Source: Chloroflexota bacterium
GTDB taxonomy: Bacteria; Chloroflexota; Limnocylindria; Limnocylindrales; CSP1-4
Assembly (NCBI GenBank): GCA_016191395.1
Contig: JACPOS010000030.1
Location: 4,235 to 68,234, forward strand
Reading direction: 5' to 3'
Length of the DNA stretch: 64,000 nt
Part shown: in pieces, positions 7,605-45,728 of the stretch
How the letters are laid out: every line of letters begins with the position of its first letter
Position numbering within the stretch: the first letter of the stretch is position 1
Program-made: the position numbers and the translations under genes
Notes under the pieces: generated by a model
What the model saw: the letters and a program-made list of their open reading frames with translations, nothing else
Databases searched by the model: none
What the model was told of the DNA's origin: nothing

Positions 7605-7620
7605 CCGCCCCGGAGGACCG

Positions 7621-8794: not shown

Positions 8795-8985
8795 CGGCAT
8801 GCCTATACCGGGCAGGGATAGGAAATTCACGACGAGCGTCGTCCGAATACCGGGCAGGTATAGGGATAGCGGCAGACACGCCCGGATCCGCTCCGAGTCG
8901 GGTGAAACGTTGTCGCGCGTATCCCTGAGAGGCATAGCGCCGCCCGGCTGTGGGCGGAAGCTATACCGGACAGGTATAGGGTCCC
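8795..8985. repeat. cluster of short inverted-repeat motifs TATACCGG(G/A)CAGGTATAGGG (3 copies) plus reverse-orientation CAGGGATA/TATCCCTG half-sites
   Basis: Copies at ~8803 (cctataccgggcagggatagg), ~8851 (ataccgggcaggtatagggatag) and ~8960 (ctataccggacaggtataggg). Each is a 6-bp-arm palindrome TATACC-N5-GGTATA. Locally lower GC. Lies between the tRNA-Glu 3' end and the 3' end of the convergent channel gene. Confidence 0.5.
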
Positions 8986-9024
8986 GCCCAGCGGCGACCG
9001 GGAACGCAACGTGACCGCTGGTGG

Positions 9025-10959: not shown

Positions 10960-11181
10960 CTCACGATTTCCGGGCCGTTCGGGGCCAGCGCCGCCGCCCG
11001 TCGGGCGGGCCATGCGGCCCCGCATGATCCGGGCTCGCGCCATTCGCGAGCGGGTCATGCGAGCCCTCGCGCCCTGTCGTAGGCATTTGCGGCCACGTCG
11101 AACATCGTCCCCGAACTGTAGCGGTGCGTACAGCCCCGCCGCGTTCCGCCATCGAGAAGCCGCGCCGGTAGGCTGCACGAC

Positions 11182-12087: not shown

Positions 12088-12140
12088 GCCTGGCGACCAG
12101 GGGCCTGAGCGCGGAGGCCGCGCCACCGTACACTCCGGCC

Positions 12141-15810: not shown

Positions 15811-15878
15811 GGAGTGCCTCCTTCGATGTGTCTGCGCACAGCCTACTCAGCCGGGCGCAACGATGCCGTGTGGAATAC

Positions 15879-19442: not shown

Positions 19443-19549
19443 CGAGCGATCTGCACTCCGATCGGGGCCCGTTCGGGCCACCGGGCGGCGGAGCATAGCA
19501 CCAGCGGTTCGTGGCTCCGGGCGCCCCGGGGAGGCCGGCCGGTACTGGG

Positions 19550-22566: not shown

Positions 22567-25500
22567 TTGCCAGAGGAGCGGCACGATGCTCGGGCCCGAC
22601 GCCCGTCGCCTGCGGGTGCCCAGCCGCCCTCGGTGGTCCCGGCGAAGGTTCGCGTCCCCACGGCCGAGGCACTCCCGCGGGAGCGCCTGGAAGGACAGCT
22701 CGCCGCAGCGGTGGAGCGGCATCGGCTGACCCTCGTCATCGCTCCCGCCGGCGCCGGCAAGACGACGCTCCTGGCCCGCTTCGCCGCGTCGACGCGCCTG
22801 CCCGTGGCCTGGTACCGGGCGGAGACCTGGGACGACGATCCGTCGCGCATGCTCCGGCATCTGGAGGCGGCGCTCGGCGCGGCGCTGCCGGGACTGCCAT
22901 CGGGCTGGTCCGACGTCGAGGACGCGGCCCGGTCGTTGGAGCGGTGGACCGGCGGGCCCGCCGCGCTCGTCATCGACGACCTTCACGCCCTCGAGGGCAC
23001 GGCGGCCGAGGCGGTCCTGAGCCGGCTGGTGGACTACGCGCCGCCATGGCTCCGGATCCTCGCAGCGTCGCGTGTCAGGCCCGACTTCAACCTGCCGCGC
23101 CTCCGCGTGTCGGGTGACCTCCTGCAGATCGAGGGCGACGACCTCCGCTTCCGGTCATGGGAGGTGGAGCGGCTGTTCCGGGACTTCTACCGCGATCCCG
23201 TGCCCCCGAGCGAGCTGGCCGTCCTCGCCCGACGCACGGAGGGCTGGGCCGCGGGCCTGCAGCTGTTCCACCTCGCCACGCGGGGCAAGTCTGCCGACGA
23301 GCGACGCCGGATCCTGGGCGGGGTGGGCTCCAGCACGCGACTGCTGCGCGACTACCTGGCCCGCAACGTTCTCTCCGAGCTGCCCGACGACCTCCGCCGA
23401 TTCCTCGTGGACACGTGCGTCCTCGTTCGCCTCACGGGTGACCTCTGCGACGAGCTGCTCGACCGGCGGGGGAGCGCGCTCCTGCTCGAGGAGCTTGCCC
23501 GCCGGCAGCTGTTCACGGTGGTCGTCGACGAGAGCGAGGGCTCGTATCGGTACCACGAGGTGCTCCGCTCGCACCTCGACCGGATGCTGGTAGAGGAGGT
23601 CGGCGAGGCGGAGGCGCGCCGGCGCCACCAGCGCGCCGCGAGCCTCCTGGAGCGCAGCGGCGCGCTGTCCGAGGCGCTCGTCGGGTACTGCCGGGCGGAG
23701 GACTGGCCGGCGGTGTCCAGCCTTGTCGGCAATCGGGGCGAGCAGGTCGCCGGCGGAGCCGGCCTGCGCCTGGAGCTGCTGCCCCCGGCGCTCGTCCGCG
23801 ACAGCCCATGGCTCGCCCTCGCCTCGGCTCGCCGAGCCCGGGCCGAAGGCCGCTGGGGGGCCGCCCTGGAGTCGTACGCCCGCGCCGAGGCCGCGTTTGG
23901 GGCCTCGACGGCCGGCTCCACCTGCCGCGGTGAGCGCCTCGCCCTGTCCGCCTGGCTTGACCCGGTTGCGATCCCGCCCGCGGACTGGACCGGGGTCCTT
24001 CGCGCAGGCCTCGTCCGCGAGCCGCTGGCCGCGGCGCGCGATTCGCGCCTGGACCCGGAGCACCGCGACCTGGTGCGAGGGCTTCTCCTCCTCGCCGCCG
24101 GCGAGGTTGCCGAGGCGCGTCGCGCGCTGACGGAGGCCAGCCAGCTCGAGGAGCTGGACCCGTCGCTTGGCGCGGCCGCGGCGGTTGGTGCGGCGGTTGC
24201 CGCCCTCCTCGCGGGGGAGCCCGGGGCGGTTCGCCAGCTCGCCGACGCGATCGACATCGCCGAGCGCACGGGCCTGCCATGGCTCGCTCGAATGGGCCGC
24301 CTGGCGGCGAGCATCGGCAACGCGGAGCTGGACCGGAGCTCGTCGGACGAGCCCGTTCACCCCGATGCGATCAGTGCGGAGACGGACCCGTGGGGCGCGC
24401 TGCTCGCCGCCCTGGTCGAGGCGTGGGTCGCCGAGTCGACGGCCACCGAGGTCGTGGGCGAGATTCGAATCGCGGCCGCGGAGCGTGCCGCAGCCCTCGC
24501 GCGCCGGCTCGGCGCGGGCGTCCTCGAGGCGCTGGCCCGCGGCCTGGCCGCGTACGGGATGGCCGAGACGAATGCGCCGGAGGTACGCGAGACCGCGCTC
24601 GCGGTCGAGAGCCTGGCGCGTGCAACCGGCACGTCCGCGCCGCGCCTCCTCGCCTACGCCGCGCTCGCCGACGCGAGCCCGGCTCGCAGGGAGGAGTACG
24701 AGCTGCTCGCGGACAACGTCCGCCGCGAGACCGGCCTTCGCCTGCCAGTCCGGCATGACGCCGCGCCAACTCCCGGCGCGGTCGAGCCGCAAAGCGGCTC
24801 CGTGTTGCAGGACAGCCGGGTCGTGCTGCCGCCCCTGGCGCGCGGGCACGGCATCGACATCCGAGCATTCGGTGGCTTCGCGGTGGAGGTCGAAGGCCGC
24901 GCCGTCCCACTGGACGGGGTCAAGCCGCGCGCCCGCGCCGTCCTTCGATTCCTCGCCGTACGCCCGGGTGTGGCGATCCACCGGGAGGTGATCCAGGAAG
25001 CCCTCTGGCCGGACGTGGACTCGCCCACGGGCGCCCGAAGCCTCCACGTCGCCGTATCGGCGCTGCGTGGGCTCTTCGCGGAGGCCCTCGCCGCGGACGC
25101 GACCCGGCTCATTGCCCGCGAGGGTGACGCGTACCGGCTCGCGGTGGATCCGACCTCCGTCGACGTGGGGCGGTTCGAGCGCGAGATGGCCCGAGCGCGG
25201 GCCTCGCGGAACGGCGCCGGCAAGGTCGGCACCGGAACGGCGGAGTTCGCGGCCGCGCTCGCCCTGTACCGGGGCGACCTCCTGCCCCAGGACGGACCGG
25301 CCGAGTGGGCCGTGGAGCGTCGGGAGCACTTCCGCCGCGAGGCCGTCGAGGCCGCGACGATCGTGGCCGAGGATGCCCTCGCATCGGGCGATCTCGAGGA
25401 GGCGATCCGCGTCTGCCGCCGCGGGCTTGAGCTGGACCGGTTCCACGATCCACTGTGGCGCGTGCTCATCGCGGCTCGCGACCAGGCTGGGGACGCCGGT

Positions 25501-25584
25501 GCAGCGAGTCGCGATCGCCGGGAGTACGCCTCCATCCTGGAGGGCTTGGGCCTCAGCCCGGAGCTGGCCGCGAACTCGGCCTGA
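22567..25584 (+). CDS. STAND-type NTPase transcriptional regulator with C-terminal SARP (OmpR-type winged helix plus BTAD) DNA-binding module
   Basis: Walker A LVIAPAGAGKTTLLARF preceded by a MalT-like N-terminal pattern. Long helical/TPR-like middle. C-terminal OmpR-type wHTH (IDIRAFGGFAVEVEGRAVPLDGVKPRARAVLRFLAVRPGVAIHREVIQEALWPD) followed by BTAD (ALALYRGDLLPQD...RVLIAA). TTG start at 22567; the true start may be ~20 codons downstream. Confidence 0.8.
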   Translation: MPEERHDARARRPSPAGAQPPSVVPAKVRVPTAEALPRERLEGQLAAAVERHRLTLVIAPAGAGKTTLLARFAASTRLPVAWYRAETWDDDPSRMLRHLEAALGAALPGLPSGWSDVEDAARSLERWTGGPAALVIDDLHALEGTAAEAVLSRLVDYAPPWLRILAASRVRPDFNLPRLRVSGDLLQIEGDDLRFRSWEVERLFRDFYRDPVPPSELAVLARRTEGWAAGLQLFHLATRGKSADERRRILGGVGSSTRLLRDYLARNVLSELPDDLRRFLVDTCVLVRLTGDLCDELLDRRGSALLLEELARRQLFTVVVDESEGSYRYHEVLRSHLDRMLVEEVGEAEARRRHQRAASLLERSGALSEALVGYCRAEDWPAVSSLVGNRGEQVAGGAGLRLELLPPALVRDSPWLALASARRARAEGRWGAALESYARAEAAFGASTAGSTCRGERLALSAWLDPVAIPPADWTGVLRAGLVREPLAAARDSRLDPEHRDLVRGLLLLAAGEVAEARRALTEASQLEELDPSLGAAAAVGAAVAALLAGEPGAVRQLADAIDIAERTGLPWLARMGRLAASIGNAELDRSSSDEPVHPDAISAETDPWGALLAALVEAWVAESTATEVVGEIRIAAAERAAALARRLGAGVLEALARGLAAYGMAETNAPEVRETALAVESLARATGTSAPRLLAYAALADASPARREEYELLADNVRRETGLRLPVRHDAAPTPGAVEPQSGSVLQDSRVVLPPLARGHGIDIRAFGGFAVEVEGRAVPLDGVKPRARAVLRFLAVRPGVAIHREVIQEALWPDVDSPTGARSLHVAVSALRGLFAEALAADATRLIAREGDAYRLAVDPTSVDVGRFEREMARARASRNGAGKVGTGTAEFAAALALYRGDLLPQDGPAEWAVERREHFRREAVEAATIVAEDALASGDLEEAIRVCRRGLELDRFHDPLWRVLIAARDQAGDAGAASRDRREYASILEGLGLSPELAANSA

Positions 25585-25602: not shown

Positions 25603-27651
25603 TCAGGGCCGGCGCCACCATGGATTCTTCGGGTCCGGCTCCGACGGCGGCTCGATCAGCGCCGTGCCGCACTTCATGCAGAACCGCCGGGCGGGATTGT
25701 TCGGCGTCGAGCAGTTGGGGCAGATCCGGGGCGGGATGACCTCGCCCTCCGGCATCTTCTGCCCGCACTTCATGCAGAAGCGCCGCTCGGCGTGGTTGGG
25801 CGTCCCGCAGTTGGCGCAGATCCGCATCAGCTCTGGCTTGGGCTCGGGGACCGGCTCGGGCTGCGGTGTGCCGGGAATCACGGTGCCGTCCGTCCTGTCG
25901 TCGACGGTGGCGGGCTCCGCCGTCGCATCGGGCTGCGCGGGGGTTGCAGCGACGCCCCGACCAGCCGCTCGCAGCGCTGCCCGATAGGCGTCGCGCGCGG
26001 CCTTCGCGGCCGCCGCGCGCTCCGCTTCATGGGCGGCCCGCCGCGCCTCGATGCGGGCCTGGCGCATTGACTCCTCGTCCGCGGCGGCCTTCTCCGCTGC
26101 GAGCCGATCCGCTTCCGCCTGCCTGGCCGCCGCCTGCTCGTCCGCCGCCGCCTTCTCGGCGGCCAGGCGATCCGCCTCCGCCTTCTCGGCAGCACGTTGT
26201 TCGGTTGCTGCCGCCTCAGCCGCAGCCTCCTCGCGTTCCGCCTTCTCCGCGGCGGCCTGCACTGCCGCCGCCTCCTCCTCGGCCGCCTTCTCCGCCGCGA
26301 TTCGGTCCGCCTCGGCGTGTTCTGCGGCGGCCTTCTCTGCGGCCACTCGTTCTGCTTCAGCGGCCTCGATGGCGGCAAGCTCGTTGGCGATCCGATCGGC
26401 TTCCGCCTTCTCGGCCGCGGCCTTCTCTACCGCTGCCTTCTCTGCCGCTGCTCGGTCGGCCTCGGCCTTTTCGGCTGCCGCCTTCTCCGCGGCGACTCGT
26501 TCCGCCTCGGCTCGTGCATCGGCGGCTTCCTTGGCTGCCTGTTCCGCCGCGGCCTTCTCCGCCGCTGCCTGCTTTGCCGCGGCCTGGTCCGCGGCGGCCT
26601 TCTCCGCCGCGGCTTGTGCTGCGGCTGCCGCGGCCGCGCGCTCGGCTGCCTCCTCTTCCTCGGCCGCCCGCTTCGCGGCCGCCGCTGCCTCCGCTGCGGC
26701 CCGGTCCGCGGCGGCCTTCTCGGCCGCTGCCTTTTCTTCAGCCTCGGCCATGTCCGCGGCGGCTTTCTCCGCGGCGGCTTTCTCGGCAGCGACCCGGTCT
26801 GCTTCGGCACGCTCGCGAGCGGTCTGTTCCGCTGCCTCGCGCTCCGCCCTGGCCTTCTCGGCAGCAACCCGATCCGCAACGGCCTTCTCCGCTGCCTTCC
26901 GTTCGGCCTTCGCGGCCTCTGCGTCGCCCTTCGCCGCCGCGGCCTTCTCGGCCGCGATATGCGCGGCTTGCTCATCGGCAAGGCGCGCCGCCTCGGCTTG
27001 TTCGGCGGCGACCCGAGCGGCCCTCTCGGCGGCCGCCTGCTCCTTCGCCACGCGCTCTGCTTCGGCCTTGTCAGCGGCCGCCTTCTCCGCTGCGATGCGC
27101 TCCGCCTCGGCCTTCGCCGCCGCAGCGGCCTTGTCCGCCGCGACCTTCTCTGCCGCCATGCGGTCGGCCTCGGCCTTTGCGGCGGCCGCCGCTTCCGCGG
27201 CGAGGCGCTCAGCCTCTGCCTTCTCAGCCTCTGCCTTCGCCGCTGCCTCGCGATCTGCGGCGGCCTTCTCCGCTGCGATGCGGTCGGCCTCGGCCTGATC
27301 GGCGGCAGCCTGTTCGGCGGTAGCCTTCGCCGCGGCGAGGCGCTCAGCCTCTGCCTTCTCAGCCTCTGCCTTCGCCGCGGCCGCCTTCTCCGCCGCGATC
27401 CGATCTGCCTCGGCCTTCTCGGCCGCCCTCCGGTCCGCCTCCGCCTGTTCCGAGGCGGCCTTCTCCGCGGCCGCCTTGTCTGCGGCCGCCTTGGCGACCG
27501 CTGCGGCGGCATCGGCCTTCGCTGCCTCGGCCTTCGCCTTCTCGGCGGCCTCGTCGTACGGCTCGCCGGTGTCGGGCAGGAAGTTGCCGCATCCGCCGCA
27601 GAAGACGACAGACGCTTCATTGATCGTGCCGCAGACCTTGCAGCGGATCAC
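25603..27651 (-). CDS. zinc-ribbon-capped Ala/Glu/Lys/Arg-rich helical repeat protein (N-terminal zinc ribbon, ~530-aa low-complexity helix, two C-terminal zinc ribbons)
   Basis: GTG start at 27651 with a GGGAGGGA RBS 5 nt upstream. N-terminus MIRCKVCGTINEASVVFCGGCG. Approximately residues 35–565 are degenerate AEKAAAEKAEADRIAAEKAAA-type repeats. C-terminal ribbons ICANCGTPNHAERRFCMKCG and ICPNCSTPNNPARRFCMKCG. The underlying DNA is tandemly repetitive (25.96–27.56 kb). Lies 76 nt downstream of the gpI-like gene. Confidence 0.75.
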   Translation of the reverse strand: MIRCKVCGTINEASVVFCGGCGNFLPDTGEPYDEAAEKAKAEAAKADAAAAVAKAAADKAAAEKAASEQAEADRRAAEKAEADRIAAEKAAAAKAEAEKAEAERLAAAKATAEQAAADQAEADRIAAEKAAADREAAAKAEAEKAEAERLAAEAAAAAKAEADRMAAEKVAADKAAAAAKAEAERIAAEKAAADKAEAERVAKEQAAAERAARVAAEQAEAARLADEQAAHIAAEKAAAAKGDAEAAKAERKAAEKAVADRVAAEKARAEREAAEQTARERAEADRVAAEKAAAEKAAADMAEAEEKAAAEKAAADRAAAEAAAAAKRAAEEEEAAERAAAAAAAQAAAEKAAADQAAAKQAAAEKAAAEQAAKEAADARAEAERVAAEKAAAEKAEADRAAAEKAAVEKAAAEKAEADRIANELAAIEAAEAERVAAEKAAAEHAEADRIAAEKAAEEEAAAVQAAAEKAEREEAAAEAAATEQRAAEKAEADRLAAEKAAADEQAAARQAEADRLAAEKAAADEESMRQARIEARRAAHEAERAAAAKAARDAYRAALRAAGRGVAATPAQPDATAEPATVDDRTDGTVIPGTPQPEPVPEPKPELMRICANCGTPNHAERRFCMKCGQKMPEGEVIPPRICPNCSTPNNPARRFCMKCGTALIEPPSEPDPKNPWWRRP

Positions 27652-27727: not shown

Positions 27728-28477
27728 TCAGGTCGCCGGCGCCTCAGGCTCCGCCGGCGCCTCAGGCTCCGCCGGTTTCTCTGCCGCCGGGGTCTTCTTC
27801 GCCGCCTCGTCCGGCGCCGGTGTTGCGGCCTTGGCCTTGCGACTGGCTCGCTGCTCCGTGCCCACGATCTCCACGCGATGGACGACGTGCGCGGGCTTCG
27901 AGGCATGGACCATCGCCTCGAGCTTCGTGCGATCGATCGAATCCGGGTCGTCCACGGTCACGCGGACCACGACGACCGGTTCCGGGCTGCCGGGCAGCTT
28001 GCCCTCCGGCTTCGGGGACCAGCTGCTCGCCCCGTTCTCGACGATCTCGACGATTCCGCCGGTGTGGATCTGGACGTGGTCACGCAGGCCCGCCGCGGTC
28101 CCGCGCCGGCGGTACAGCTCCGCCGCCTGGCCCACGAATGCACGTCGCCGATCCTCCGGCCAGCCGTCATCGACCGACGCCGCGACCCACTCGCCGAGCC
28201 AGGCCAGGAAGTCCTCCGGCGTCGTGTCGGCGTCGAAGTACGCGGGAAGGTTGTCCAGGGTGGCGAGGACCGGTGCGAGCACCGTGTCGAGCGCCGAGAT
28301 GAAGCGCGTGCCGAACGGCTCCCGCGCCGTCCGCCGCCGCTCGTCGATCCAGGCGTCGCGATAGACGCCCGGCAGGCTCTCGGCGAGCGGGTGGGGGTTG
28401 ATGAGCTCGAACTCGGACCCGGTGGCGAGGGCGGTCTCGCCGTCCGTCCGTGCGAGTGCCACCACGGCGGCTCGCAT
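27728..28477 (-). CDS. phage tail protein I-like baseplate protein (P2 gpI / eCIS Cis12-like)
   Basis: ATG overlaps the baseplate-J stop (ATGA). The segment FLAWLGEWVAASVDDGWPEDRRRAFVGQAAELYRRRGTAAGLRDHV aligns to the P2 gpI motif LPWLAWAFSVDRWDEKWPE..KRAVIRDAYFIHCHKGTIGAIRRVV. Low-complexity Pro/Glu/Ala C-terminal tail. Confidence 0.8.
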   Translation of the reverse strand: MRAAVVALARTDGETALATGSEFELINPHPLAESLPGVYRDAWIDERRRTAREPFGTRFISALDTVLAPVLATLDNLPAYFDADTTPEDFLAWLGEWVAASVDDGWPEDRRRAFVGQAAELYRRRGTAAGLRDHVQIHTGGIVEIVENGASSWSPKPEGKLPGSPEPVVVVRVTVDDPDSIDRTKLEAMVHASKPAHVVHRVEIVGTEQRASRKAKAATPAPDEAAKKTPAAEKPAEPEAPAEPEAPAT

Positions 28478-30459
28478 CAGGCGACCGACGCCGCGGCGCC
28501 CGGGACGGTGACCACGTGCCCAACGCTGAAGACGAGCACGTTCGGCTTCAGCTCGAGTCGCGGCGTCGCCTCGCGGCCCTCGCACGTCTCGGCGTTCGTG
28601 CCGAACAGGTTCACCGAGTCCACCACCTCCGACCCGGGCACACGCTGCAGCACGGAGTAGATCTCGCCGATGGTGACCGGCCGGCCGAACGGCCAGCCCT
28701 TCCCGTCCGGGCCCCCGGTGATCGGATGCAGGTATTCGTACAGGGCACGCTCGGCGTCGGCCTTCAGTCGGTTCGGGTTCGCGCCGGCAGCCGGCTTGAC
28801 GGTCGCCTCGACGGTGACGCCCCGATACCCCGGCGGCTCCACGCTGATGCGCGTCCCGATGACCCGGCATTCCTCGAGCCGCTGGGTGATGGCCTCGAGG
28901 AGGGTTGGATCGGGGACCAGCTGGTCGAAGCGGATGCGGCCGTCGATGCTCGGCAGCGAGGGCACCACGAGCAGGCGAACGGCGCCTGCGAGCGCACCGT
29001 CGCCCGCCGCGATCGCGCGGACGCGGCCCACGTTGGGGGCGGCTTCGCGCGCGAGGTGCTCGAAGTCCTCCGTCGTGACCGCCCGGCCGCGCGTGCGCAG
29101 CCGGATCGGCCCGCGGACCTTCGCGTTCTCGATGTCCTCGCCGTCGACGCCGCCCCGCGCGTCGCGCCGGTTCTCCACCCGGGAGACGAACGGGTTCGCC
29201 GACTTCACGACCTTGATGGAGCCCGTCGCCGCGTTGCCGCGCTGGCCGCCGCCGGTGTGGTACTCCAGCATCCGGATGTAGCGGTCCTTCTCGGGCGTCG
29301 CGCCGTACTGGCGAAGCGAGCCGTCCGGCTGCCGGATCGCGGGGCCAAACCGGACCTCGCCGGTCGCGCCGTCGATCACGAAGTGGCGGTCGGTGGGGCC
29401 GCTGGCCGCGAAGTCCTCCACCTGGTCCCATGTCTGCCAGGTCGGGCTGCCGTCGGCGTCCGAGCCCGTGGACACGGCGAGCGTGGCCGCCTCGTCCGTG
29501 GACAGGACGGGCTTGCGCCGGAGCTCGAAGCGCTGGCCCGGCACACCCTCGGAGACGCCGAGGTCCTCGTCGCGAACCACCGAGGCGTTGACCGCCGCGA
29601 CCGTGCCGCCGACGGTGATGGAGCTCGCCGCGTTGACCGTGGGCGAGGCCTCGTACCCGGACATGCCCGGGATGGGCTCCACGACCCGCGCCCGGACCCA
29701 GGCGGCGTGCCTGGTGCCGATGGTGTGCGCGGCATGGCCGCGGGGGACGTGGATCACGACGTCGCCGTCCCGGTTGAGACCGCCGGTGGAATCAGAGTCC
29801 TGCTCGCACGGGATCCAGTCCTCGCCGTTCCACGCCTCCCAGAGAAGTGGCGGGTGGTCCGGGTTGACGCCGACGCCCTCGATGTCGCACTTGAAGCGGA
29901 GCTGGATCGCGTTCGACGGCACCGCCTGCGACAGGCCGATGAGCAGCGCATCGCCGAGGGCGGGCTTCTCCTGGAAGCAGTACGCATCCTTGCCCAGCTC
30001 CACGAGCGGCAGGAGGTCGCGGTAGGCCGATTTGCCCTTCGCCATCGAGCCGAGCTCGATCAGCGTCGCCGGGATGATCGGGAGCTCCTCGGTGGTCGCG
30101 AAGATGATGGCCTCGTCCGTCTCGGTGCGGACCGTCGCTACCTGCGTCGCCGGCGGGATGCGGACGACGTCCGGCTGCGGCCCGGCGAGCCAGAACGTGA
30201 CGTCCGTCCGTGCCGCGGTCGGCGGGAACAGGGTCACGCCGATCAGCTCCAGGAACTTGATGTAGTTCCGGTCCGGGACGCGGTTCAGCCGGTAGATCAG
30301 CTGGTCCGTCATCCACGCGAACGTCTCGATGAGCGTCACGCCCGGGTCCGACACGTTGTGGTCGGTCCACTCCGGGCAGCGCTGCTGGACGAGCCGCTTG
30401 GCCTCGTCGACGAGGTCCTGGAAGCGACGATCGTCAAGGTTGGGGACGGGTAGCGCCAT
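28477..30459 (-). CDS. baseplate J-like protein (gp6/gpJ family; eCIS Cis11/Afp11-like)
   Basis: 660 aa. N-terminus MALPVPNLDDRRFQDLVDEAKRLVQQRCPEWTDHNVSDPGVTLIETFAWMTDQLIYRLNRVPDRNYIKFLELIGV is the canonical baseplate-J/gp47 family start. Confidence 0.9.
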   Translation of the reverse strand: MALPVPNLDDRRFQDLVDEAKRLVQQRCPEWTDHNVSDPGVTLIETFAWMTDQLIYRLNRVPDRNYIKFLELIGVTLFPPTAARTDVTFWLAGPQPDVVRIPPATQVATVRTETDEAIIFATTEELPIIPATLIELGSMAKGKSAYRDLLPLVELGKDAYCFQEKPALGDALLIGLSQAVPSNAIQLRFKCDIEGVGVNPDHPPLLWEAWNGEDWIPCEQDSDSTGGLNRDGDVVIHVPRGHAAHTIGTRHAAWVRARVVEPIPGMSGYEASPTVNAASSITVGGTVAAVNASVVRDEDLGVSEGVPGQRFELRRKPVLSTDEAATLAVSTGSDADGSPTWQTWDQVEDFAASGPTDRHFVIDGATGEVRFGPAIRQPDGSLRQYGATPEKDRYIRMLEYHTGGGQRGNAATGSIKVVKSANPFVSRVENRRDARGGVDGEDIENAKVRGPIRLRTRGRAVTTEDFEHLAREAAPNVGRVRAIAAGDGALAGAVRLLVVPSLPSIDGRIRFDQLVPDPTLLEAITQRLEECRVIGTRISVEPPGYRGVTVEATVKPAAGANPNRLKADAERALYEYLHPITGGPDGKGWPFGRPVTIGEIYSVLQRVPGSEVVDSVNLFGTNAETCEGREATPRLELKPNVLVFSVGHVVTVPGAAASVA

Positions 30460-30469
30460 CGTCAGCTCC

Positions 30470-30862
30470 TCACTCGCCGGGAATCACGTAGAACGGGAAG
30501 ACCAGGTTGTGGCGGTCGTTGGTTCGCTTCATGCGGTACTGGATGTCGATGTAGAACACGGTCGGGTCCTCCGCCGTGAACAGCACCACGACGTCCCCGA
30601 CGTCGATCCGGTGCTCCCAGCGGGTGAGCGCGCTCTTGACCTCGGCGGAGATCGCGGCGGCGGTCGTGCTGTCCGCAGGGCTGAACACGAAGTCGTGGAT
30701 CCGGCAGCCGAACTCCGGGCGCATGGGGCGCTCGCCCGGCGAGGTGGACACGATCACCCGGATCGCCTCCTGGATCTCGCGCTCGCTCGACACCAGGGCG
30801 ATGCCACCGTTGGCATCCGTCCGGATCGGGAAGGCCCAGCCGCGGCCGATGAAGTCCGTCAT
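30470..30862 (-). CDS. GPW/gp25 family baseplate wedge protein (eCIS Cis9-like)
   Basis: 130 aa. N-terminal signature FIGRGWAFPIR, the gp25 'GRGWxFP' motif. Start overlaps the VgrG stop. Confidence 0.9.
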   Translation of the reverse strand: MTDFIGRGWAFPIRTDANGGIALVSSEREIQEAIRVIVSTSPGERPMRPEFGCRIHDFVFSPADSTTAAAISAEVKSALTRWEHRIDVGDVVVLFTAEDPTVFYIDIQYRMKRTNDRHNLVFPFYVIPGE

Positions 30863-32622
30863 CAGTTGATCCCCACCGTCTGGCCCTTGATGGTCATGGC
30901 CTGGGTGGCCTTCACGTCGAGCGTCTTGCCGGCCGAGATCTTCATCGCCCCCTCGGCCTTCAGCTCGAGGTCGCCCTTGGCGAGGATGCTGATGGCGCTC
31001 TCCGAGGTGATGGACAGCTCCTTGTCACCCTGGCCGAGCGAGATCTGGATCTTGTTGTCGGCGGTGATCAACATGATCCCGGCGTCGTCGTCCTTGTCGT
31101 AGAACATGATCTTGTGGCCCGCCGGCGAGACGATGCCGTGGACCTTGACCTTGCCATTGCTGATGCTGTCCATGAGCTTGTCGGGCATCTTGGCCTGGCC
31201 GTTCCAGAGCGAGCCGAGGATGAGCGGGTGGGCGAGGTCACCCTGCTCGAAGCCGACGACGACCTCCTCGTTGATGTCAGGGATCCACAGGAACCCCGCG
31301 TCCGTGCCGGCCGCCGGGCGGGAGATCCGTGCCCAGAACGACTCCGCCTTGTCGTCCATCCACGGGTACTTGACCTTCACCCGCCCCAGCTTGTCGGGGT
31401 CGTCGTTCTTCGTGACGACGGCGATGACGATGCCCGGGATCGGCGTACGCGCGGCGGGGACGGACAGCCCGCCGGACACGAGGCCGTGGAGCGATCGATC
31501 CTGCCGGCCGCTGAACTCCAGGTGCGTGCGGTAGGCCCCGGCGCCGAACTCGTGGCGCGCCGTGGAGATGACCCAGTTGCCTTCCAGTGCCGGGTCGACG
31601 TTGGACACCGGCACGGCCACGCCGGCCTTCAGCTCCGGCGCGCCGATCGCGACAGCGGTCGCCTCATAGGCAGCGCTCGCCACCTGGTCGGCGATCGCCT
31701 TCGCCATGTCGCCGGCGGCGCCCTGCTCGCCGACCGGCCGGTCGACCACGACCAGCGTCTCGCCGCCGACCGCATTGGCGAGGTCCGCCGGGCTCATCTT
31801 AAGCTTCGTGCTGTCCGTCTCTGCCGACGCCTCGCCGATCACGGCCTCGCGGTTCTTCACGTTCCAGCCGCGGACCTTCACGTCCGTGACCTGGGCAACC
31901 GCGCTCATCCGCGCTCGGAACTCCAGGAGTCGCTTGCCCCAGCGCAGCTGGGTCGGCTTGTCGATGTCGGCGTCGCCCGGGGCGGCCGGCGCCGTGCTCG
32001 CCTTCGTCGGCTTCTTGAAGTGGAGCGTCTTGTCCTCGATGGTGATGTCGAAGCCGACGCGCTGGGAGATCTGGTACAGGAAGTCCAGGTCGGACACGTT
32101 GCCCTGGATGACGTGGTCCAGCGTGCCGCCGGAGCTCTCCATCTGGGCGTCCAGGTGGGCCGCCGAGACGATCTCCTGGACGACGTCCGCGTACGTGACG
32201 TTCGTCCACGTCTTGGTCCGGCGCCCGGACGAGAGCCGGTGCAGGAAGTCGTAGCCGCGAACGACGGCCTTGGCGCCGAGCAGGTCGTACTCGGCCTCGA
32301 TGGAGGTGACCTCACCAGAGATGAGCTCCTTCGGGGAGTCGCCGCCGGGCATGCTCGCCTTGATCTTCACCTTTGCCCCGACCTTGAAGCCCCCGGTCTC
32401 CAGCGTGGTGTGCGTCTCGTCCCGGAACACGATCACGAACGCGTCCGGCATCCGCAGTCGATCGATCACGACCACGTTGATCAGGAGCTTCTCGATGGCC
32501 TCGTCGAGCTTCTTGCCACCCACCTCGATGACGCTGGTGGTGACGGGTGGGAGCTTGGACTCGGTCCCGCCGCCCGCGGCTCCGCCGCCGGTGGCGAGGT
32601 CCACGAGTCCGCCGATGCCCAT
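30862..32622 (-). CDS. VgrG-like spike/baseplate hub protein (gpD-like plus gp5/gpV-like beta-helix; eCIS Cis8-like)
   Basis: 586 aa. Size and domain order fit a Phage_GPD-like N-terminal region followed by a beta-helical repeat C-terminus (KIMFYDKDDDAGIMLITADNKIQISLGQGDKELSITSESAISILAKGDLELKAEGAMKISAGKTLDVKATQAMTIKGQTVGIN). Located between the LysM protein and gp25, as in eCIS/T6SS. Confidence 0.85.
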   Translation of the reverse strand: MGIGGLVDLATGGGAAGGGTESKLPPVTTSVIEVGGKKLDEAIEKLLINVVVIDRLRMPDAFVIVFRDETHTTLETGGFKVGAKVKIKASMPGGDSPKELISGEVTSIEAEYDLLGAKAVVRGYDFLHRLSSGRRTKTWTNVTYADVVQEIVSAAHLDAQMESSGGTLDHVIQGNVSDLDFLYQISQRVGFDITIEDKTLHFKKPTKASTAPAAPGDADIDKPTQLRWGKRLLEFRARMSAVAQVTDVKVRGWNVKNREAVIGEASAETDSTKLKMSPADLANAVGGETLVVVDRPVGEQGAAGDMAKAIADQVASAAYEATAVAIGAPELKAGVAVPVSNVDPALEGNWVISTARHEFGAGAYRTHLEFSGRQDRSLHGLVSGGLSVPAARTPIPGIVIAVVTKNDDPDKLGRVKVKYPWMDDKAESFWARISRPAAGTDAGFLWIPDINEEVVVGFEQGDLAHPLILGSLWNGQAKMPDKLMDSISNGKVKVHGIVSPAGHKIMFYDKDDDAGIMLITADNKIQISLGQGDKELSITSESAISILAKGDLELKAEGAMKISAGKTLDVKATQAMTIKGQTVGIN

Positions 32623-32634
32623 GCCGCCCGCGCC

Positions 32635-33432
32635 TCAGGACCGCTGCGCCGCGTCGGCGGCGCTCGGGATGAGGAGGAACTGCCCGGGCTTGATGCGCAG
32701 CGGATCGTCGATGCCGTTCGCCTCGGCGATGGCGCGCCAGTAGCCGCTGCGGCCGAGCTCGACGAAGGCGATCATCGCGATCGTCTCGCCCTCGACCACG
32801 CTGTGCACCCGGCGCATGTCCGTGGCATGCGAGGTCGGGTTGGTGCCCGGCGGCGGGTCGATCTTGCCGTCCAGCGTCAGGTCGACCTTGGCCTGGATCG
32901 GTGTCCCGTTCTTGCTGAACACCGTGTAGTTGACGTTCACGGACGTGATCACGCCCTTGAAGTTCTTGAGCTGGTCGTTGCCCCATTCGAACTTCACGAA
33001 CGGCGGGCCGACCTTCTTCTTCGGATCGGCGTACTGCCACGACAGGAGCTTCGTGATCTTGGGCGTGACGTCGCCCTTCATCGACGCGAAGTCGTCGAAG
33101 AACAGCTGCATCTGGACGGTCATGCCGGACGTGCCCGTGTACTCGATGTGGCCGCCCGGATCGAACACGCTCTGGCTGTGGGTGATGTTCGCGGTCTGCG
33201 AGATCCGGTATTCCGTGGGGTTGAACATGAACGTGATCTCGGAGTCCTTGTCCTCCGCACCCAGGCCGGGGATCGGCAGCGCTGACGCGACCGCCGAGCC
33301 CACGGCGGACAGGGCCCCACCGAGGCCGCCGCCGTCGTCCCCACCGGCGGGCGCGTCGAGGCGGATCAGCTTGGCCTTGCCGTGCAGCAAGATCCCGGCG
33401 ACGGCTCCGACGGCTCCGACGGCGAGGTCCAT
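32635..33432 (-). CDS. LysM-domain baseplate protein (P2 gpX / eCIS Cis7-like)
   Basis: 265 aa. C-terminal LysM (ETIAMIAFVELGRSGYWRAIAEANGIDDPLRIKPGQFLLIP). N-terminal ITFMFNPTEYRISQ domain. Positioned between the second tube-like protein and VgrG. Confidence 0.75.
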   Translation of the reverse strand: MDLAVGAVGAVAGILLHGKAKLIRLDAPAGGDDGGGLGGALSAVGSAVASALPIPGLGAEDKDSEITFMFNPTEYRISQTANITHSQSVFDPGGHIEYTGTSGMTVQMQLFFDDFASMKGDVTPKITKLLSWQYADPKKKVGPPFVKFEWGNDQLKNFKGVITSVNVNYTVFSKNGTPIQAKVDLTLDGKIDPPPGTNPTSHATDMRRVHSVVEGETIAMIAFVELGRSGYWRAIAEANGIDDPLRIKPGQFLLIPSAADAAQRS

Positions 33433-33441
33433 CTCCGTCCC

Positions 33442-33936
33442 CTAGAAGCTGACGCTGCCGGAGAGGCTGCCGCCGATGCTCATCGCGCCCGCGAGCGCGG
33501 CCCCGACCATGCCGCCGAGGCCGATCATCTCGTCGTAGGCGATCTCCAGCGTCTCCATCGCGACCTGGTTGCCGTTGATGTCCAGCGACGGCCCGCTCCA
33601 CTTCACGGGCACCACGCCCGCGAGGTTCCAGGTCGTGACCTCCTGGCCCTCGGAGTCCAGGGCGGTGATGGCCATGGTCTGGGGCACGATCTTGATGAGG
33701 TTCGCGGCCAGCCAGATGTAGATCAGCTCGGAGTCGGAATCCACCGGGCGCGACAGGCGGACGTTCTCGAACCGCGCCGGCCCGATGATCTTGCGCATGT
33801 AGGTGTTGAGCCCGCCCTCGCGGTACTCGGTCACCTGGAACGAGAACCCGAGGCCCTCGATCTTGCTCCACGTCCCGAGCGGGATGATCCCGTCGATCGT
33901 GCACTTGTAGGTCAGGGTCAGCGCCGGCTCGCCCAT
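33442..33936 (-). CDS. tail tube-like protein (T4 gp19 fold; probable tube initiator, eCIS Cis5-like)
   Basis: 164 aa. LTYKCTIDGIIPLGTWSKIEGLGFSFQVTEYREGG is the gp19-family 'WskveGL..e.e..EYrEGG' signature. Second paralogue in the locus. Confidence 0.75.
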   Translation of the reverse strand: MGEPALTLTYKCTIDGIIPLGTWSKIEGLGFSFQVTEYREGGLNTYMRKIIGPARFENVRLSRPVDSDSELIYIWLAANLIKIVPQTMAITALDSEGQEVTTWNLAGVVPVKWSGPSLDINGNQVAMETLEIAYDEMIGLGGMVGAALAGAMSIGGSLSGSVSF

Positions 33937-33945
33937 CAGGTCTCC

Positions 33946-42307: not shown

Positions 42308-43018
42308 GTGCGCGATCCCGTGCCCTCGACGCCCGACCTCACCGACGCCATCGCGGACGCCCGCGCGGAGGTGGTGGCTGCGAGCCGGCAGCTGACCGAT
42401 CGCGCGAACGACGTCTTCCGAGCCACCGTGTCGGTGATCGTCGAGACGGTCGAGCAGCGGCTCGAGGCCGTCGTGCTGGGCCAGGCGGAGCGCACCCAGA
42501 AGCTGGGCAAGTCCGGTGTGGACCGGCTTCGCGCCGACCTCGTCGCGGCGACCGCCAAGCTTCCCGGCGAGAGCGCGAAGCGCCTCGTGGGCGCCTTCTC
42601 GTGGACGTTCCCGCAGGAGGCCGCGTGGATCGGGGACAGCGACCGGACGCCGCTGTACCAGGGCGGCGCCGACCTGCCGTGGATGATCGACGACGCCATC
42701 CGCACCTCGGCCGCCATCGCCGGCCGCCTTGCCCTGGACGCGGGCTACGAGATCACGCCGCGGAGCCAGTGGGAGATCTCCTCGGACGGCACCGTCCAGC
42801 GCTACCTCGGCCCGTTCGCGGTCCCGTCCAAGCTTGTCGTGGCGCTCCGGAGCTACTCCGATGCGCGGCTGCGCTACTTCCGCAAGCTGCGGGCACTTCG
42901 TCGCCTGGAGGCGGAGAAGAGCGCACGGGACGCGCGCATCGAGTCGGAGGTGGTGCGCGACGCGGCGCTGTTGCCCGCGACCGTGCTCTGGTCCAACTCG
43001 GCCAAGCCGAGCGCGTGA
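42308..43018 (+). CDS. hypothetical protein immediately downstream of the DUF4157 gene (candidate cargo/partner)
   Basis: GTG directly follows the DUF4157 stop (TAG-GTG). 236 aa, helical N-terminal half, no recognisable family. Balanced composition. Confidence 0.5.
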   Translation: MRDPVPSTPDLTDAIADARAEVVAASRQLTDRANDVFRATVSVIVETVEQRLEAVVLGQAERTQKLGKSGVDRLRADLVAATAKLPGESAKRLVGAFSWTFPQEAAWIGDSDRTPLYQGGADLPWMIDDAIRTSAAIAGRLALDAGYEITPRSQWEISSDGTVQRYLGPFAVPSKLVVALRSYSDARLRYFRKLRALRRLEAEKSARDARIESEVVRDAALLPATVLWSNSAKPSA

Positions 43019-43034: not shown

Positions 43035-43682
43035 CTAGATCAGGCCCTCGCGGATCGCATACGCGACGGCGTGCGCGCGGTTGCGCAGGTCCAGGCGGGA
43101 CGTGACGTCGTGGATGATGTTCTTGACCGTGCGCTCGGAGTAGAACAGGCGCCGGCCGACCTCGGCCGTGTCGTAGCCCTCGGCCAGGAGGCGGAGGACC
43201 GCCGTCTCGCGCTCGGTCAGGCCTGAGAACGTCAGGCCGCGCGGCGACAGGACCTGGCGCTGGAGCTCGCCGACCTGGCGGAGGAGCCGACCGAGCAGGT
43301 CCGGAGGGAGCGTGCCCTCGCCGGCTGCAGCGGACCGGATCGCCAGCGCGAGGTTGTGCGCCGTGGCCTCGCTTCGCCGGATGACGCCGGAGACGCCGGC
43401 CTCGGCGGCCGCGAGCAGGCCCTTGTCGTTGACCCAGGTGACGAGCAGGACCACCTTGGAGACGCCGCGCGCGCGGAGCGATCGGATCTCCGTCGTGATC
43501 GCATCGGTGACGTCGTCTGCCACGACCAGGGACACGCCGTCGACGTGCGGGGTGTCGCCGGAGCTGACGATGAAGCCCTGCGCGCTGCGCAGCTGGCTCA
43601 CGATCCCGGCCTTGGTGAGCGGGTCCGCCGCGGACACGTGGACCCCGATCGACGGGTTGAAGGGAACCGGCTCGGCAACCAT
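43035..43682 (-). CDS. LuxR-family response-regulator-like transcriptional regulator (REC-like plus LuxR HTH)
   Basis: 215 aa. C-terminal LuxR HTH LTERETAVLRLLAEGYDTAEVGRRLFYSERTVKNIIHDVTSRLDL. N-terminal receiver-like domain. Confidence 0.8.
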   Translation of the reverse strand: MVAEPVPFNPSIGVHVSAADPLTKAGIVSQLRSAQGFIVSSGDTPHVDGVSLVVADDVTDAITTEIRSLRARGVSKVVLLVTWVNDKGLLAAAEAGVSGVIRRSEATAHNLALAIRSAAAGEGTLPPDLLGRLLRQVGELQRQVLSPRGLTFSGLTERETAVLRLLAEGYDTAEVGRRLFYSERTVKNIIHDVTSRLDLRNRAHAVAYAIREGLI

Positions 43683-43855
43683 CGGACGCTCTCCCCTGAC
43701 CGCTCGGCCGCCCCCGATTGCCCTGGTGGACGCTGGCTGGCCGCCCGTTCTGCGACCCTAGCGGGCAGCCCTTTCCGGTCGCTGAACGCCGGCTTAACGG
43801 GCACCGATCCGGCGGCGATTCGGCTGCCCCTTCGGGCAAAGGCGTCGCCGCGCGA

Positions 43856-44257
43856 TCAGGCGGAGCCCGACTCCAGGCTCGCCATCAGGTCCGCGATCGC
43901 GACGGAGACGCGGTGGCCCGCGCCGGCGACCGGCGCGTCCAGCTTCGGGCTGCGAAGCCGAACCACCCAGCCCACGCGCGGGACCTCTTCGTCCGGGGGC
44001 TCGATCTGCACGTCGTCCAGCTGCGGCGCCGCCCGCGCGACGAGGCGCCTCACGACGTCGACCGTATCGTCCGGCTCCCACTGGCCGCGCCAGTACTCCT
44101 CGCGCAATGCGCGCTCGATGCAGGCCGCGTGGGGATCGTCCGGGTGGAACGTGTGCGACGGCCACTCTTCCCATGGATCGTCGACCGACAGCACGGTCCC
44201 GCACGTGCAGGCCAGGGTGCCTCGTTCGGAGCCGCCCTCGAACTCGATCGGGCTCAT
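43856..44257 (-). CDS. hypothetical protein
   Basis: 133 aa from internal Met MSPIEFEGGSERGTLACTCGTVLSVDDPWEEWPSHTFHPDDPHAACIERALREEYWRGQWEPDD. Protein-like composition. The upstream part of the listed 282-aa ORF is Arg-rich and judged spurious. Confidence 0.45.
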   Translation of the reverse strand: MSPIEFEGGSERGTLACTCGTVLSVDDPWEEWPSHTFHPDDPHAACIERALREEYWRGQWEPDDTVDVVRRLVARAAPQLDDVQIEPPDEEVPRVGWVVRLRSPKLDAPVAGAGHRVSVAIADLMASLESGSA

Positions 44258-44354
44258 TCGATGCCAGGGCTCGCCTTCGCGGGCCCGGATCCAGACGCTC
44301 ACGCCGTGGATTCTACGGCGGGCACGATTTCGACCCGATGCGCGAGACTTCGGT

Positions 44355-45586
44355 CCGTGAACGTTCTGTCCGCTCGTGCGTCGACCGTAGCTCGCTCGCT
44401 CGCGCTCGCCGGGCTCGCCATGGGCGCCTTCGGCTGCGGCTCGCTGGCGCCACAGGCGTCTACGCCGCCGGTGCTCGGCATCGACTGGGGCCGCGCCGCA
44501 TCGGTGGAGCGGCCGGCCAACTACGAGGAGACGGTGTCGCCCACCTACCAGGCGAAGCACCCGATCCTGCGCATCCAGGGCCAGGCGACGATGGCCGACC
44601 TCATCGGGCTGCCGAAGGGCGGGTTTGTCTCCGTTGGGTACGCACCGCCGGACTGGGTGCCGGTCGCATGGACCTCGGCGGACGGCAACAGGTGGGCGTT
44701 CCACGCGACGCTGGACGAGACGGACTTCACCTTTCCGCTATCGCTCGCGGTCGGCGGCGATGGCACGGTCGTGGCCGTCGGTCGGTCGGGCAGGGAGCCG
44801 ATCGCCTGGACGACGAAGGACGGCATCGATTGGCAACGTCACACCGTGGCCATCCTTGGCGGCGACGGCACCGCGGAACGGATGACGGCCGTCGTCGGCG
44901 GACCGAGCGGGTTCGTCGCCGGCGGCTCCGTCGGGCCGGAGCTGTTCGAGCGGCATGCGCGTTTCTGGCGGTCCGCCGACGGCATCGACTGGACCCCCGT
45001 CGCGGACGATCGTGTCGCCTTTGCCAATGCCGAGGTTCGGGCGATCACCCGACTCGGGAACGGCTTTGTCGCTGTGGGCGTGGTGGGCACCGCCCAGGAG
45101 CACACCGGCGCCGTGGCATGGACCTCGCCGGACGGCGCGACCTGGACCCGGGTGGACGACCACGCGCTCGACGGCGGCGAGGCGGTCGCGGTCGCGCCCG
45201 CGCCGTGGGGCGGCGTCATCGCCGTGGGCGCCACGGTCGGACGGCAGAATGCCGCTGCATGGATCTCCCCCGATGGTCGCAGCTGGACACGCGCGCCGGA
45301 CGAGGCGTCGCGCCAGCACAGCGGCGGGTTCGCATGGATGACCGATGTCGTCGCGATCGGCGACCAGGTGATCGGCGTCGGAGACGTCCAGGGGCTGCAG
45401 CGCGGCACTGCGGTCTCCTGGGTCACTCGCGACGGGCTCACCTGGGCGATGTCGCTCGAGGCGCCTGTCCAGGAGGGGGCCGAGTTCTATGCGATCACCC
45501 CTGGCGGAGCAGGGGCCTTCGCGGTTGGCGCATTCGGAGCGCCCGACTCGTACGTTCCGGAGGTCTGGGTGACCCCCGGCCGCTGA
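44355..45586 (+). CDS. lipoprotein with repeated W-x-[ST]-x-DG-x-x-W motifs (beta-propeller/BNR-like)
   Basis: GTG start. Signal peptide with lipobox (LAGLAMGAFGC GS). Six repeats (WTSADGNRW, WTTKDGIDW, WRSADGIDW, WTSPDGATW, WISPDGRSW, WVTRDGLTW). Confidence 0.65.
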
Positions 45587-45652: not shown

Positions 45653-45728
45653 GTCCCCGGAGCTCAGTGGACAGAGCGGCTGCCTTCTAAGCAGCGGGTC
45701 GCAGGTTCAAATCCTGCCGGGGACGCCA
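45653..45728 (+). tRNA. tRNA-Arg (anticodon TCT)
   Basis: Acceptor GTCCCCG pairs with CGGGGAC. D-arm AGCTCAGTGGACAGAGC. Anticodon stem GCTGC/GCAGC with loop CTTCTAA (anticodon TCT). T-arm GCAGG-TTCAAAT-CCTGC. 3' GCCA. Confidence 0.85.

Follow-up and report, generated by a model that had tools for sequence, protein, structure and literature searches.

An anchor-less CisA homologue at a probable class IId contractile injection locus of an uncultured Chloroflexota bacterium

The class IId lineage of contractile injection systems (CIS), with its structure, its cytoplasmic action, CisA and the Sle-type effectors, has been described since 2021, and regions of class IId had been noticed in Chloroflexi by 2023. 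Cytoplasmic CIS, whose particles stay in the producer and fire there, killing the cell, are known for Streptomyces coelicolor and S. venezuelae, and for Roseiflexus and Deinococcota particles have been observed inside cells (PMC10066040, PMC12998442). CIS-Sc, the S. coelicolor system, lacks the Afp13 fibre and a typical Afp14 tape measure, with PAAR occurring in some species only (PMC10066040), and it forms cytoplasmic particles (Casu 2023, PMC10066040). Two divergent promoter regions have been reported for S. coelicolor (PMC10020575), and in S. lividans the effector genes lie upstream of the sheath gene in reverse direction (PMC13277306). Here we describe a CIS locus within a stretch of 64,000 nucleotides (hereafter the window) from a Chloroflexota bacterium of the order Limnocylindrales (assembly GCA_016191395.1, contig JACPOS010000030.1, positions 4,235 to 68,234).

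Taken as a whole, the locus is best explained, at a probability of roughly 0.8, as a class IId CIS of the CIS-Sc type on the chromosome of an uncultured Chloroflexota and known from its genes alone, the class being assigned from nearest-homologue scores and synteny. The system is real and largely ordinary; its one unusual trait is a CisA homologue without a membrane anchor. An earlier note on this DNA had proposed that the P2-like gene order and the divergent arm might define a distinct lineage, but the same order is found gene for gene in Streptomyces IId loci. Because the Streptomyces loci and the literature share these traits, order and divergent arm are a hallmark of dbeCIS class IId. The locus does not represent a new lineage, and class IId in Chloroflexota has already been published; what it adds is the placement of a CIS-Sc-type system in Limnocylindrales-type Chloroflexota, a group (Limnocylindria) that no paper in our literature search couples with contractile injection.

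Particle genes and class assignment

Because the window has about 72% G+C, its raw list of open reading frames (ORFs) is full of spurious frames; genes were called by third-position GC (GC3) bias, with starts set by inspection. This resulted in 15 genes between 27,728 and 43,018, 11 on the minus and 4 on the plus strand. The earlier note had announced a complete contractile locus of fourteen genes; the completeness stands, and the count is corrected to the 15 that its own list contains. All the profile families that it had predicted were recovered by Pfam above the gathering score, together with DUF6760 for a 52-aa ORF. Gene junctions range from -4 to +12 nt, except between sheath and tube (41 nt) and between cis15 and the eCIS_core gene (112 nt), which bears out the description of two divergent, operon-like arms with tight or overlapping starts and stops. 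The features are as follows.

42308-43018, plus strand: helical protein of 236 aa (p236), with a 0-nt gap after the eCIS_core gene
41579-42307, plus strand: small eCIS_core (DUF4157) protein, 242 aa (Pfam eCIS_core 2.7e-33)
39337-41466, plus strand: Cis15 AAA+ ATPase with N-terminal winged-helix domain (Pfam WHD 2.9e-28, AAA 8.5e-23)
38615-39340, plus strand: Cis16 cap/tail terminator (DUF4255; Pfam Pvc16_N 7.7e-39; PDB 9gts_0A, the CIS-Sc cap, 3e-52)
38430-38614, no strand: divergent intergenic region of 185 bp, with the presumed promoters of both arms
36903-38429, minus strand: Cis2 contractile sheath (Pfam Phage_sheath_1/1C)
36427-36861, minus strand: Cis1a inner tube (Pfam Phage_T4_gp19 2.7e-23)
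35952-36422, minus strand: conserved 156-aa protein, between tube and DUF6760 as in Streptomyces (phrog_508, tail assembly chaperone, E 8.7e-6)
35797-35955, minus strand: small DUF6760 protein, 52 aa (Pfam DUF6760 1.5e-12)
33946-35790, minus strand: Ala/Pro-rich protein of 614 aa in the tape-measure position, with nine [LIVM]QR motifs and a conserved C-terminal helix
33442-33936, minus strand: Cis1b, second tube-fold protein (tube initiator layer; Pfam Phage_T4_gp19 1.1e-25)
32635-33432, minus strand: Cis7 tube initiator with LysM (Pfam CIS_tube 2e-26 and LysM; PDB 9gtp_P 2e-28)
30862-32622, minus strand: Cis8 VgrG-like spike (Pfam Phage_base_V and Phage_GPD; PDB 9gtr_q, CIS-Sc, 2.5e-80)
30470-30862, minus strand: Cis9, gp25-like (Pfam GPW_gp25 3e-24)
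28477-30459, minus strand: Cis11 baseplate wedge (Baseplate_J; Pfam 6.3e-16; PDB 9gtp_1K, CIS-Sc, 2.3e-218 over the full length)
27728-28477, minus strand: Cis12 baseplate wedge (Tail_P2_I; Pfam 5.8e-16; PDB 9gtp_E, CIS-Sc, 1.3e-35)

By Pfam, all nine particle proteins of CIS-Sc have orthologues here (Cis1a, Cis1b, Cis2, Cis7, Cis8, Cis9, Cis11, Cis12 and Cis16). CIS-Sc chains were the top PDB matches, 50-150 orders of magnitude ahead of Afp, PVC, AlgoCIS and cyanobacterial CIS. The sheath, for example, matched 8bky_A (CIS-Sc) at 1.8e-203 and 8bl4_V at 2.4e-200, compared with about 1e-50 for Pvc2/Afp2 and 8e-14 for a pyocin sheath. To compare gene order, we used related CIS loci labelled L001-L089; the Cis12 scan, with one genome per species, returned 80 loci, and the frameshift-ridden assemblies L083 and L085 were counted for synteny only. 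In dozens of Streptomyces class IId loci (L017-L080; 30-68% identity per gene) the genes are collinear with the minus arm, in the order sheath, tube, X, DUF6760, Ala/Pro-rich, tube2, Cis7, Cis8, (Cis10), Cis9, Cis11, Cis12 and CisA; a divergent cap/ATPase arm is found in L081, L087 and L089 and in the literature. Cis12 has its closest relatives (71-89% identity) in Chloroflexota metagenome-assembled genomes (MAGs) labelled Candidatus Limnocylindrales or Chloroflexia, and Streptomyces Cis12 is at about 45%.

The closest known systems are therefore CIS-Sc (sco4242-sco4263; class IId; PDB 8bky, 9gtp, 9gtr, 9gts) and the orthologous SLP of S. lividans. Besides the nine particle proteins, CIS-Sc and the window have in common Cis15, DUF6760, the 156-aa protein, the [IV]QR-repeat protein, the minus-arm order, the divergent arms, the lack of Afp13 and of a canonical Afp14, an optional PAAR and a CisA-family gene right after cis12; they differ in the Chloroflexota host and in the length of the Ala/Pro-rich protein (614 aa against about 1000 aa). 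Of the same class and, for the Chloroflexota members, the same phylum are the systems of Roseiflexus castenholzii, Thermogemmatispora, Calidithermus and Deinococcus (ISME J 2026, PMC12998442), which have fibre-less, intracellular particles, for which horizontal transfer with Streptomyces has been proposed, and whose hosts are mostly extremophiles (PMC12998442). Afp of Serratia and PVC of Photorhabdus (classes Ia/Ib) have a homologous sheath, tube, Afp5/7/8/9/11/12, Afp15 ATPase and Afp16 cap, but their components score between 1e-5 and 1e-50 against the window proteins (sheath about 1e-50; cap against Afp16 only 2e-7, about 1e-7). A tube gene before the sheath gene, three sheath paralogues, Afp13 fibres, Afp14 in last position and one co-directional operon are features that set Afp/PVC apart from the window.

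Two small ORFs had been called chaperone-like. For the 156-aa protein, which matched no Pfam family, the phrog_508 match lends this modest support, and it is probably a tail-assembly chaperone; the 52-aa ORF is a DUF6760 protein, 56-94% identical in all loci compared. The 156-aa protein is among the most conserved genes of the locus across phyla, sharing 57-68% identity with Streptomyces loci and 87% with a protein of an Aeromicrobium MAG, and its family is very large (E <= 0.001 for 7,938 of 8,000 scored candidates).

The description of the Ala/Pro-rich protein as tape-measure-like holds for its position and not for its sequence, which has zero matches in Pfam, PHROG and NCBIfam. It is probably disordered, and by position alone it is possibly a lumen or ruler protein. 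Its nine [LIVM]QR motifs compare with 0.21 expected, a number reached in 0 of 500 shuffles, and its Streptomyces equivalents (900-1150 aa) contain 6-12 motifs and the same C-terminal helix motif. Overall, [LIVM]QR is 25-40x over-represented in the Ala/Pro-rich and eCIS_core proteins and is kept in the Streptomyces equivalents (e.g. L023, L053 and L077); it may be a loading or interaction motif. The S. davawensis CIS with Tme (PMC11126660) likewise has a large protein immediately upstream of the baseplate genes and uses DUF4157 as effector core/adaptor. Tme is, however, an approximately 2250-aa fusion of DUF4157, tape-measure protein and endonuclease with transmembrane (TM) helices (PMC11126660), whereas in the window DUF4157 is found in a small protein of its own, and the protein in the tape-measure position lacks DUF4157, TM and nuclease domains.

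The earlier note's report that PAAR and a canonical fibre gene are missing was confirmed. The VgrG stop and the gp25 start overlap by 1 nt, and a relative's PAAR-like protein matches nothing in the window; Pfam and PHROG found neither a tail-fibre/receptor-binding (Afp13) gene nor a canonical Afp14 tape measure at the locus. The fibre and tape-measure positions are filled by the CisA-like and the Ala/Pro-rich genes. Between VgrG and gp25, a PAAR-like gene of about 130 aa is found in L002, L003, L007-L014, L084 and L087 and is missing from the window, L005, L006, L011 and L016. Because it is present even in close relatives (L002, L003) and absent in others, PAAR has often been gained or lost within the clade.

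The promoter/terminator scan showed no sigma-70 consensus site in the 185-bp divergent region, and the repeat search returned only weak repeats there. The structural genes at 30000-34000 and 36000-38000 have a G+C content of 0.66-0.68, under the window average of about 0.72, and the Ala/Pro-rich gene reaches 0.78; these differences within the locus could stem from amino-acid composition or from foreign origin.

The CisA homologue and the accessory block

Because a conserved accessory block lies on one side and a LuxR regulator at the other end, the functional locus extends beyond the interval flagged earlier, to about 19,550-43,682. The former boundaries (27728-43018) missed a CisA homologue and a conserved regulator/accessory block, listed here.

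43035-43682, minus strand: LuxR/GerE-family regulator, 215 aa (Pfam GerE), convergent with the plus arm
25603-27651, minus strand: CisA homologue, 682 aa, 76 nt downstream of cis12 (Pfam Zn_Ribbon_1, DZR, DUF7577)
22567-25584, plus strand: regulator of 1005 aa with STAND NTPase, Trans_reg_C winged-helix and BTAD (STAND/SARP; Pfam AAA_22/AAA_16, Trans_reg_C, BTAD)
21018-22460, plus strand: 480-aa protein with two Zn-ribbons, poly-Pro, TM and PD40 (TolB-like propeller; Pfam PD40, DUF7577, DZR; NCBIfam TolB propeller)
19550-20935, minus strand: 461-aa immunoglobulin (Ig)-TM protein with two PapD-like Ig domains, TM at about 219-240, a disordered linker and a variable C-terminal domain

The CisA homologue consists of an N-terminal Zn-ribbon, an Ala/Glu/Lys helical spacer of about 530 aa, two Zn-ribbons and PWWRRP, followed directly by the stop. 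The spacer is 49% Ala and 18% Glu, with charges every five residues and with one Gly and no Pro in about 530 residues. Of the markers of the CisA family, it has the position after cis12, the N-terminal Zn-ribbon and a Cys-rich Zn module followed by PWWR. The termini are collinear with those of Streptomyces and Chloroflexota CisA (pairwise E 3e-12 and 8e-14), with 51-52% identity across the last Zn-ribbon and PWWR. In Streptomyces CisA, a Zn-ribbon, a Pro/Ala linker, a second Zn-ribbon and LPWWRTRWPF are followed by a TM helix and an outer domain of about 150 aa. The window protein differs in its two pre-terminal Zn-ribbons, in having the Ala/Glu/Lys spacer in place of the Pro/Ala linker, and in lacking both the TM helix (maximum KD19 of 0.97, versus 2.1-2.9 in real CisA) and the outer domain. 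For these last two parts, tblastn detected no homologue anywhere in the window (E > 0.5), and the stop codon of the convergent neighbour lies 18 bp from the end of the gene.

More distant Chloroflexota loci (L007-10, L014, L016) have the full CisA layout, with an Ala/Glu-rich or Pro-Glu linker, and the outer domain of full-length Chloroflexota CisA is homologous to that of Streptomyces (E 3e-11). This domain is present in L007-10, L014, L016 and L086, and in 61 of 84 loci overall. The anchor-less form also occurs in L001, L004, L006 and L084, which shows that it is conserved rather than the product of faulty assembly; altogether, the TM-less form with conserved Zn-ribbon termini was found in at least five independent assemblies at 61-89% Cis12 identity. 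Limnocylindrales-type loci carry either a full CisA or, as in the window, an anchor-less one; Roseiflexus is reported to be without close cisA homologues (PMC12998442). CisA is missing from 21-25% of Streptomyces IId loci as well as from Roseiflexus (PMC10066040, PMC12998442). The cytosolic part of CisA is predicted to contact Cis11, and CisA is needed for firing (Casu et al., eLife 2025); according to a proposal by Vladimirov et al., CisA is attached to the baseplate by its Cys-rich module, which precedes the TM helix. Full-length and anchor-less CisA in related genomes offer a natural comparison for the baseplate contact and for the need of anchoring in firing.

Histone-H1-like and HC2 matches of the CisA homologue were rejected; they were below cut-off and reflect its Ala/Lys composition. 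The Ala/Glu/Lys pentad repeat that its gene encodes accounts for an extreme AT skew (-0.55) in the region of 26-28 kb.

The STAND/SARP regulator is convergent with the structural operon and is found adjacent, at 54-86% identity, in every Chloroflexota locus that is long enough, with no match in the Streptomyces loci compared. Beside it in L001, L003-6, L011, L084, L085 and L086 lies the PD40 protein, which with a TM helix at about 138-165 has a CisA-like topology and a different outer domain. The Ig-TM protein is 49% identical in L084 and about 44% in L085/L086. The block of regulator, PD40 and Ig-TM genes follows cis12/cisA in three Chloroflexota sublineages (L001, L003-6, L011, L084-L086) and was not seen in Streptomyces loci. 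Conversely, the genes Sco4256-4258 of Streptomyces are absent between cis15 and the sheath in the window. Vladimirov et al. described a conserved Sco4256-type toxin with the same Ig-TM layout, and the 461-aa protein shows the Sco4256-4258 architecture of a PapD-like N-domain, a single TM and a variable C-terminal domain within a IId region, making it a candidate Sco4256-type membrane effector on architectural grounds. At the opposite end of the locus, the LuxR regulator is 78-96% identical in L081, L083 and L087, where it also closes the plus arm; the ORF beyond it (43718-45586) has no Pfam match and is not conserved beside the locus.

We also considered the PD40 protein as a strict replacement of the CisA anchor, the two initially being mutually exclusive in 8 versus 6 loci. 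This model was weakened because L086 has a full-length CisA together with the PD40 and Ig-TM genes. On the plus-arm side of L089 (16395-16732), a protein with Zn-ribbon/DUF7577, F5/8-type-C and NADase_transloc matches suggests that Zn-ribbon-headed accessory proteins with varied outer domains recur around such systems.

Candidate cargo, site of action and competing explanations

The small eCIS_core protein contains a HELSH motif and an N-terminal LQRTAGN motif (in the stretch LLHLQRTAGNAGVVQML), and its three [LIVM]QR motifs, with 0.12 expected, were reached in 0 of 500 shuffles. The adjoining p236 has no match in Pfam, PHROG, NCBIfam or the PDB sequences. Its AlphaFold2 (AF2) model (predicted local distance difference test, pLDDT, 84) is a three-helix bundle of long helices for which Foldseek found no PDB fold match (best E 0.8). 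The p236 family comprises 99 clusters at 52-96% identity without a Pfam domain, all unnamed or "hypothetical", and the few names that bear a taxon are all Chloroflexota/Limnocylindrales. Among 1.84 billion representatives, the profile search gave 48 hits only, all to unnamed proteins; on this sequence evidence, p236 is a lineage-restricted protein. No Streptomyces homologue of it was found.

The two-arm layout also occurs in L081, L087 and L089. A relative of p236 is encoded on the CIS plus arm in L081, and a more distant one directly after cis15 in L089; the weakest relatives are without CIS linkage. The p236 slot looks variable because L087 holds an fn3/CW_binding_2 protein there. L081 has two further genes between cis15 and eCIS_core (5550-9009), which encode a helical protein of 661 aa that contains hydrophobic segments and a protein of 435 aa that faintly matches Peptidase_M15_4; they are probably additional effectors that are missing from the window. 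Extra cargo candidates in L081 begin with LQRxxGNxxV or GNRAV...PVQR.

In S. lividans, Sle2, a small DUF4157 protein, binds both the proteins of the spike complex and Sle1, the helical cargo encoded next to it; pairs of this kind are common across Actinobacteria (PMC13277306). The window has the same layout as SLP, a small DUF4157 protein adjoining a helix-rich protein on an arm divergent from the sheath. The eCIS_core protein and p236 thus resemble, by architecture only, a Sle2/Sle1-like candidate adaptor-cargo pair. Sle1-type cargo has remote tape-measure homology and a C-terminal TM hairpin; p236, unlike it, has no hydrophobic TM hairpin and no PHROG, Pfam or fold match.

From the characterised homologues, we propose that baseplate, tube and sheath would come together in the cytoplasm as a fibre-less particle closed by a cap. 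The small eCIS_core protein would act like Sle2 and link cargo to the spike complex, with p236 as the best cargo candidate, and the Ala/Pro-rich [IV]QR-repeat protein may lie within the lumen of the tube. Judging from the nearest characterised systems, the particle would stay in its producer and fire there under stress or during development rather than be released. The STAND/SARP and LuxR regulators probably control expression. The CisA homologue keeps the cytoplasmic Zn-ribbon modules proposed to contact the baseplate and has a spacer instead of the TM helix and outer domain; because it lacks these two parts, the firing trigger must be different from that of Streptomyces. The conserved but unannotated IId components (the 156-aa protein, the [IV]QR-repeat protein and the p236 family) could help annotation.

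Several points weigh against a CIS-Sc-type system that works in this way. Its class placement was made by homologue scores and synteny only, and the picture of cytoplasmic localisation, firing and cell death comes by extrapolation from Streptomyces and Roseiflexus. Because p236 has neither detectable similarity to Sle1 nor a TM hairpin, it and the eCIS_core protein can be read as cargo and adaptor by analogy only. Homology to tape-measure proteins is lacking in the Ala/Pro-rich protein. Finally, because firing in Streptomyces requires membrane-anchored CisA, a system with an anchor-less CisA might be non-firing or might use another mechanism.

A more far-reaching proposal, which we regard as doubtful, is that in this Limnocylindrales-type clade CisA has been remodelled into a soluble tether of up to about 80 nm. 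The tether would consist of a Zn-ribbon, the Ala-rich helix of about 530 aa and two Zn-ribbons, and membrane coupling would have been passed to the PD40/Ig-TM partners, the Zn-ribbons of the PD40 protein being paralogous to those of CisA, or would have been abandoned. The [IV]QR/LQRxxGN motifs, common to the protein in the tape-measure position, the eCIS_core adaptor and cargo candidates nearby, could in the same proposal be a IId loading signal. If this were true, the locus would position and trigger a cytoplasmic CIS in a different manner, with a natural split of the baseplate-binding and membrane-anchoring functions of CisA.

The earlier note had labelled the system extracellular. A true extracellular CIS, released by lysis of its producer and injecting other cells as Afp/PVC do, would be in keeping with the general gene set including cap and AAA+ ATPase, with the LysM on Cis7 and the eCIS_core protein, both common to extracellular systems, and with the extracytoplasmic domains of the PD40 and Ig-TM proteins. 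We nevertheless consider it unlikely. A CisA homologue stands in the fibre position and the locus has no fibre/receptor-binding gene, the 64 kb hold no lysis or holin genes, and the Afp/PVC components are far more distant than those of CIS-Sc. The label does not fit the closest characterised relatives either, since CIS-Sc and the Chloroflexota/Deinococcota IId systems stay in the cytoplasm and are not released.

We give still less weight to a decaying or disabled system, in which the loss of the CisA anchor would have left the locus unable to fire and turning into pseudogenes. In favour of this, S. coelicolor needs CisA for contraction and function, the homologue here is without TM and C-terminal domain, and PAAR is absent too. 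All 21 ORFs are, however, intact with a GC3 of 0.81-0.99, and the recurrence of the TM-less CisA across independent assemblies does not suggest decay; PAAR is optional in Streptomyces as well, and the Streptomyces IId loci and Roseiflexus mentioned above do without CisA altogether.

The P2-like succession of sheath, tube, chaperone, tape-measure position and baseplate W-J-I might instead point to a defective prophage tail or an R-type tailocin. The order does match that of the phage P2 tail and R-type pyocins (FI-FII-chaperone-T...W-J-I), and the 2:1 Cis11:Cis12 wedge of CIS-Sc resembles pyocin R2. This origin is nonetheless highly improbable. P2 and pyocins have neither a cap-plus-AAA+ arm nor eCIS_core, Cis15, Cis16 and eCIS_core being hallmarks of CIS and not of tailocins, and the pyocin sheath match is comparatively poor. 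In agreement with the earlier note, Pfam revealed no capsid, portal, terminase, integrase or lysis gene in the 64 kb; it showed no other head gene, no holin/endolysin, no immunity gene and no T6SS membrane-complex gene either, and the window has no fibres. The flanks hold housekeeping metabolism genes, and among 30 further ORFs across the 64 kb Pfam identified acyl-CoA dehydrogenases, acetyl-CoA synthetase, methylmalonyl-CoA mutase, PspA, an extracytoplasmic function (ECF) sigma factor, transporters and other genes of this kind. A type VI secretion system (T6SS), suggested by the VgrG-like spike and the gp25-like protein, can be dismissed, as the earlier note had argued, since the window holds no T6SS families (no TssB/C sheath pair, TssM/L/J complex, TssK or ClpV) and its sheath is a single phage-type protein matching CIS-Sc.

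Surroundings in the window

In Rfam, the only matches in the window were two tRNAs (45653-45725 and 8551-8624, both plus strand). The first lies about 2 kb past the LuxR end of the CIS-Sc-type locus, with no integrase nearby. On the other side, an N6/N4 DNA methylase gene (18099-19496, minus strand) is syntenic in the close clade only, at 82-90% identity. About 2 kb beyond the extended locus lie membrane-stress genes for PspA/IM30 and for a membrane protein that has a TPM domain and a Gly-rich tail (15097-17852, minus strand); this link is probably coincidental because the genes are not seen beside the locus in L084. Farther out, at 9025-13247, a 1180-aa ORF with Castor/Pollux and TrkA-type channel domains (minus strand) overlaps a 505-aa DUF1611 ORF (plus strand) by about 840 nt, and the start of one of the two is probably miscalled.

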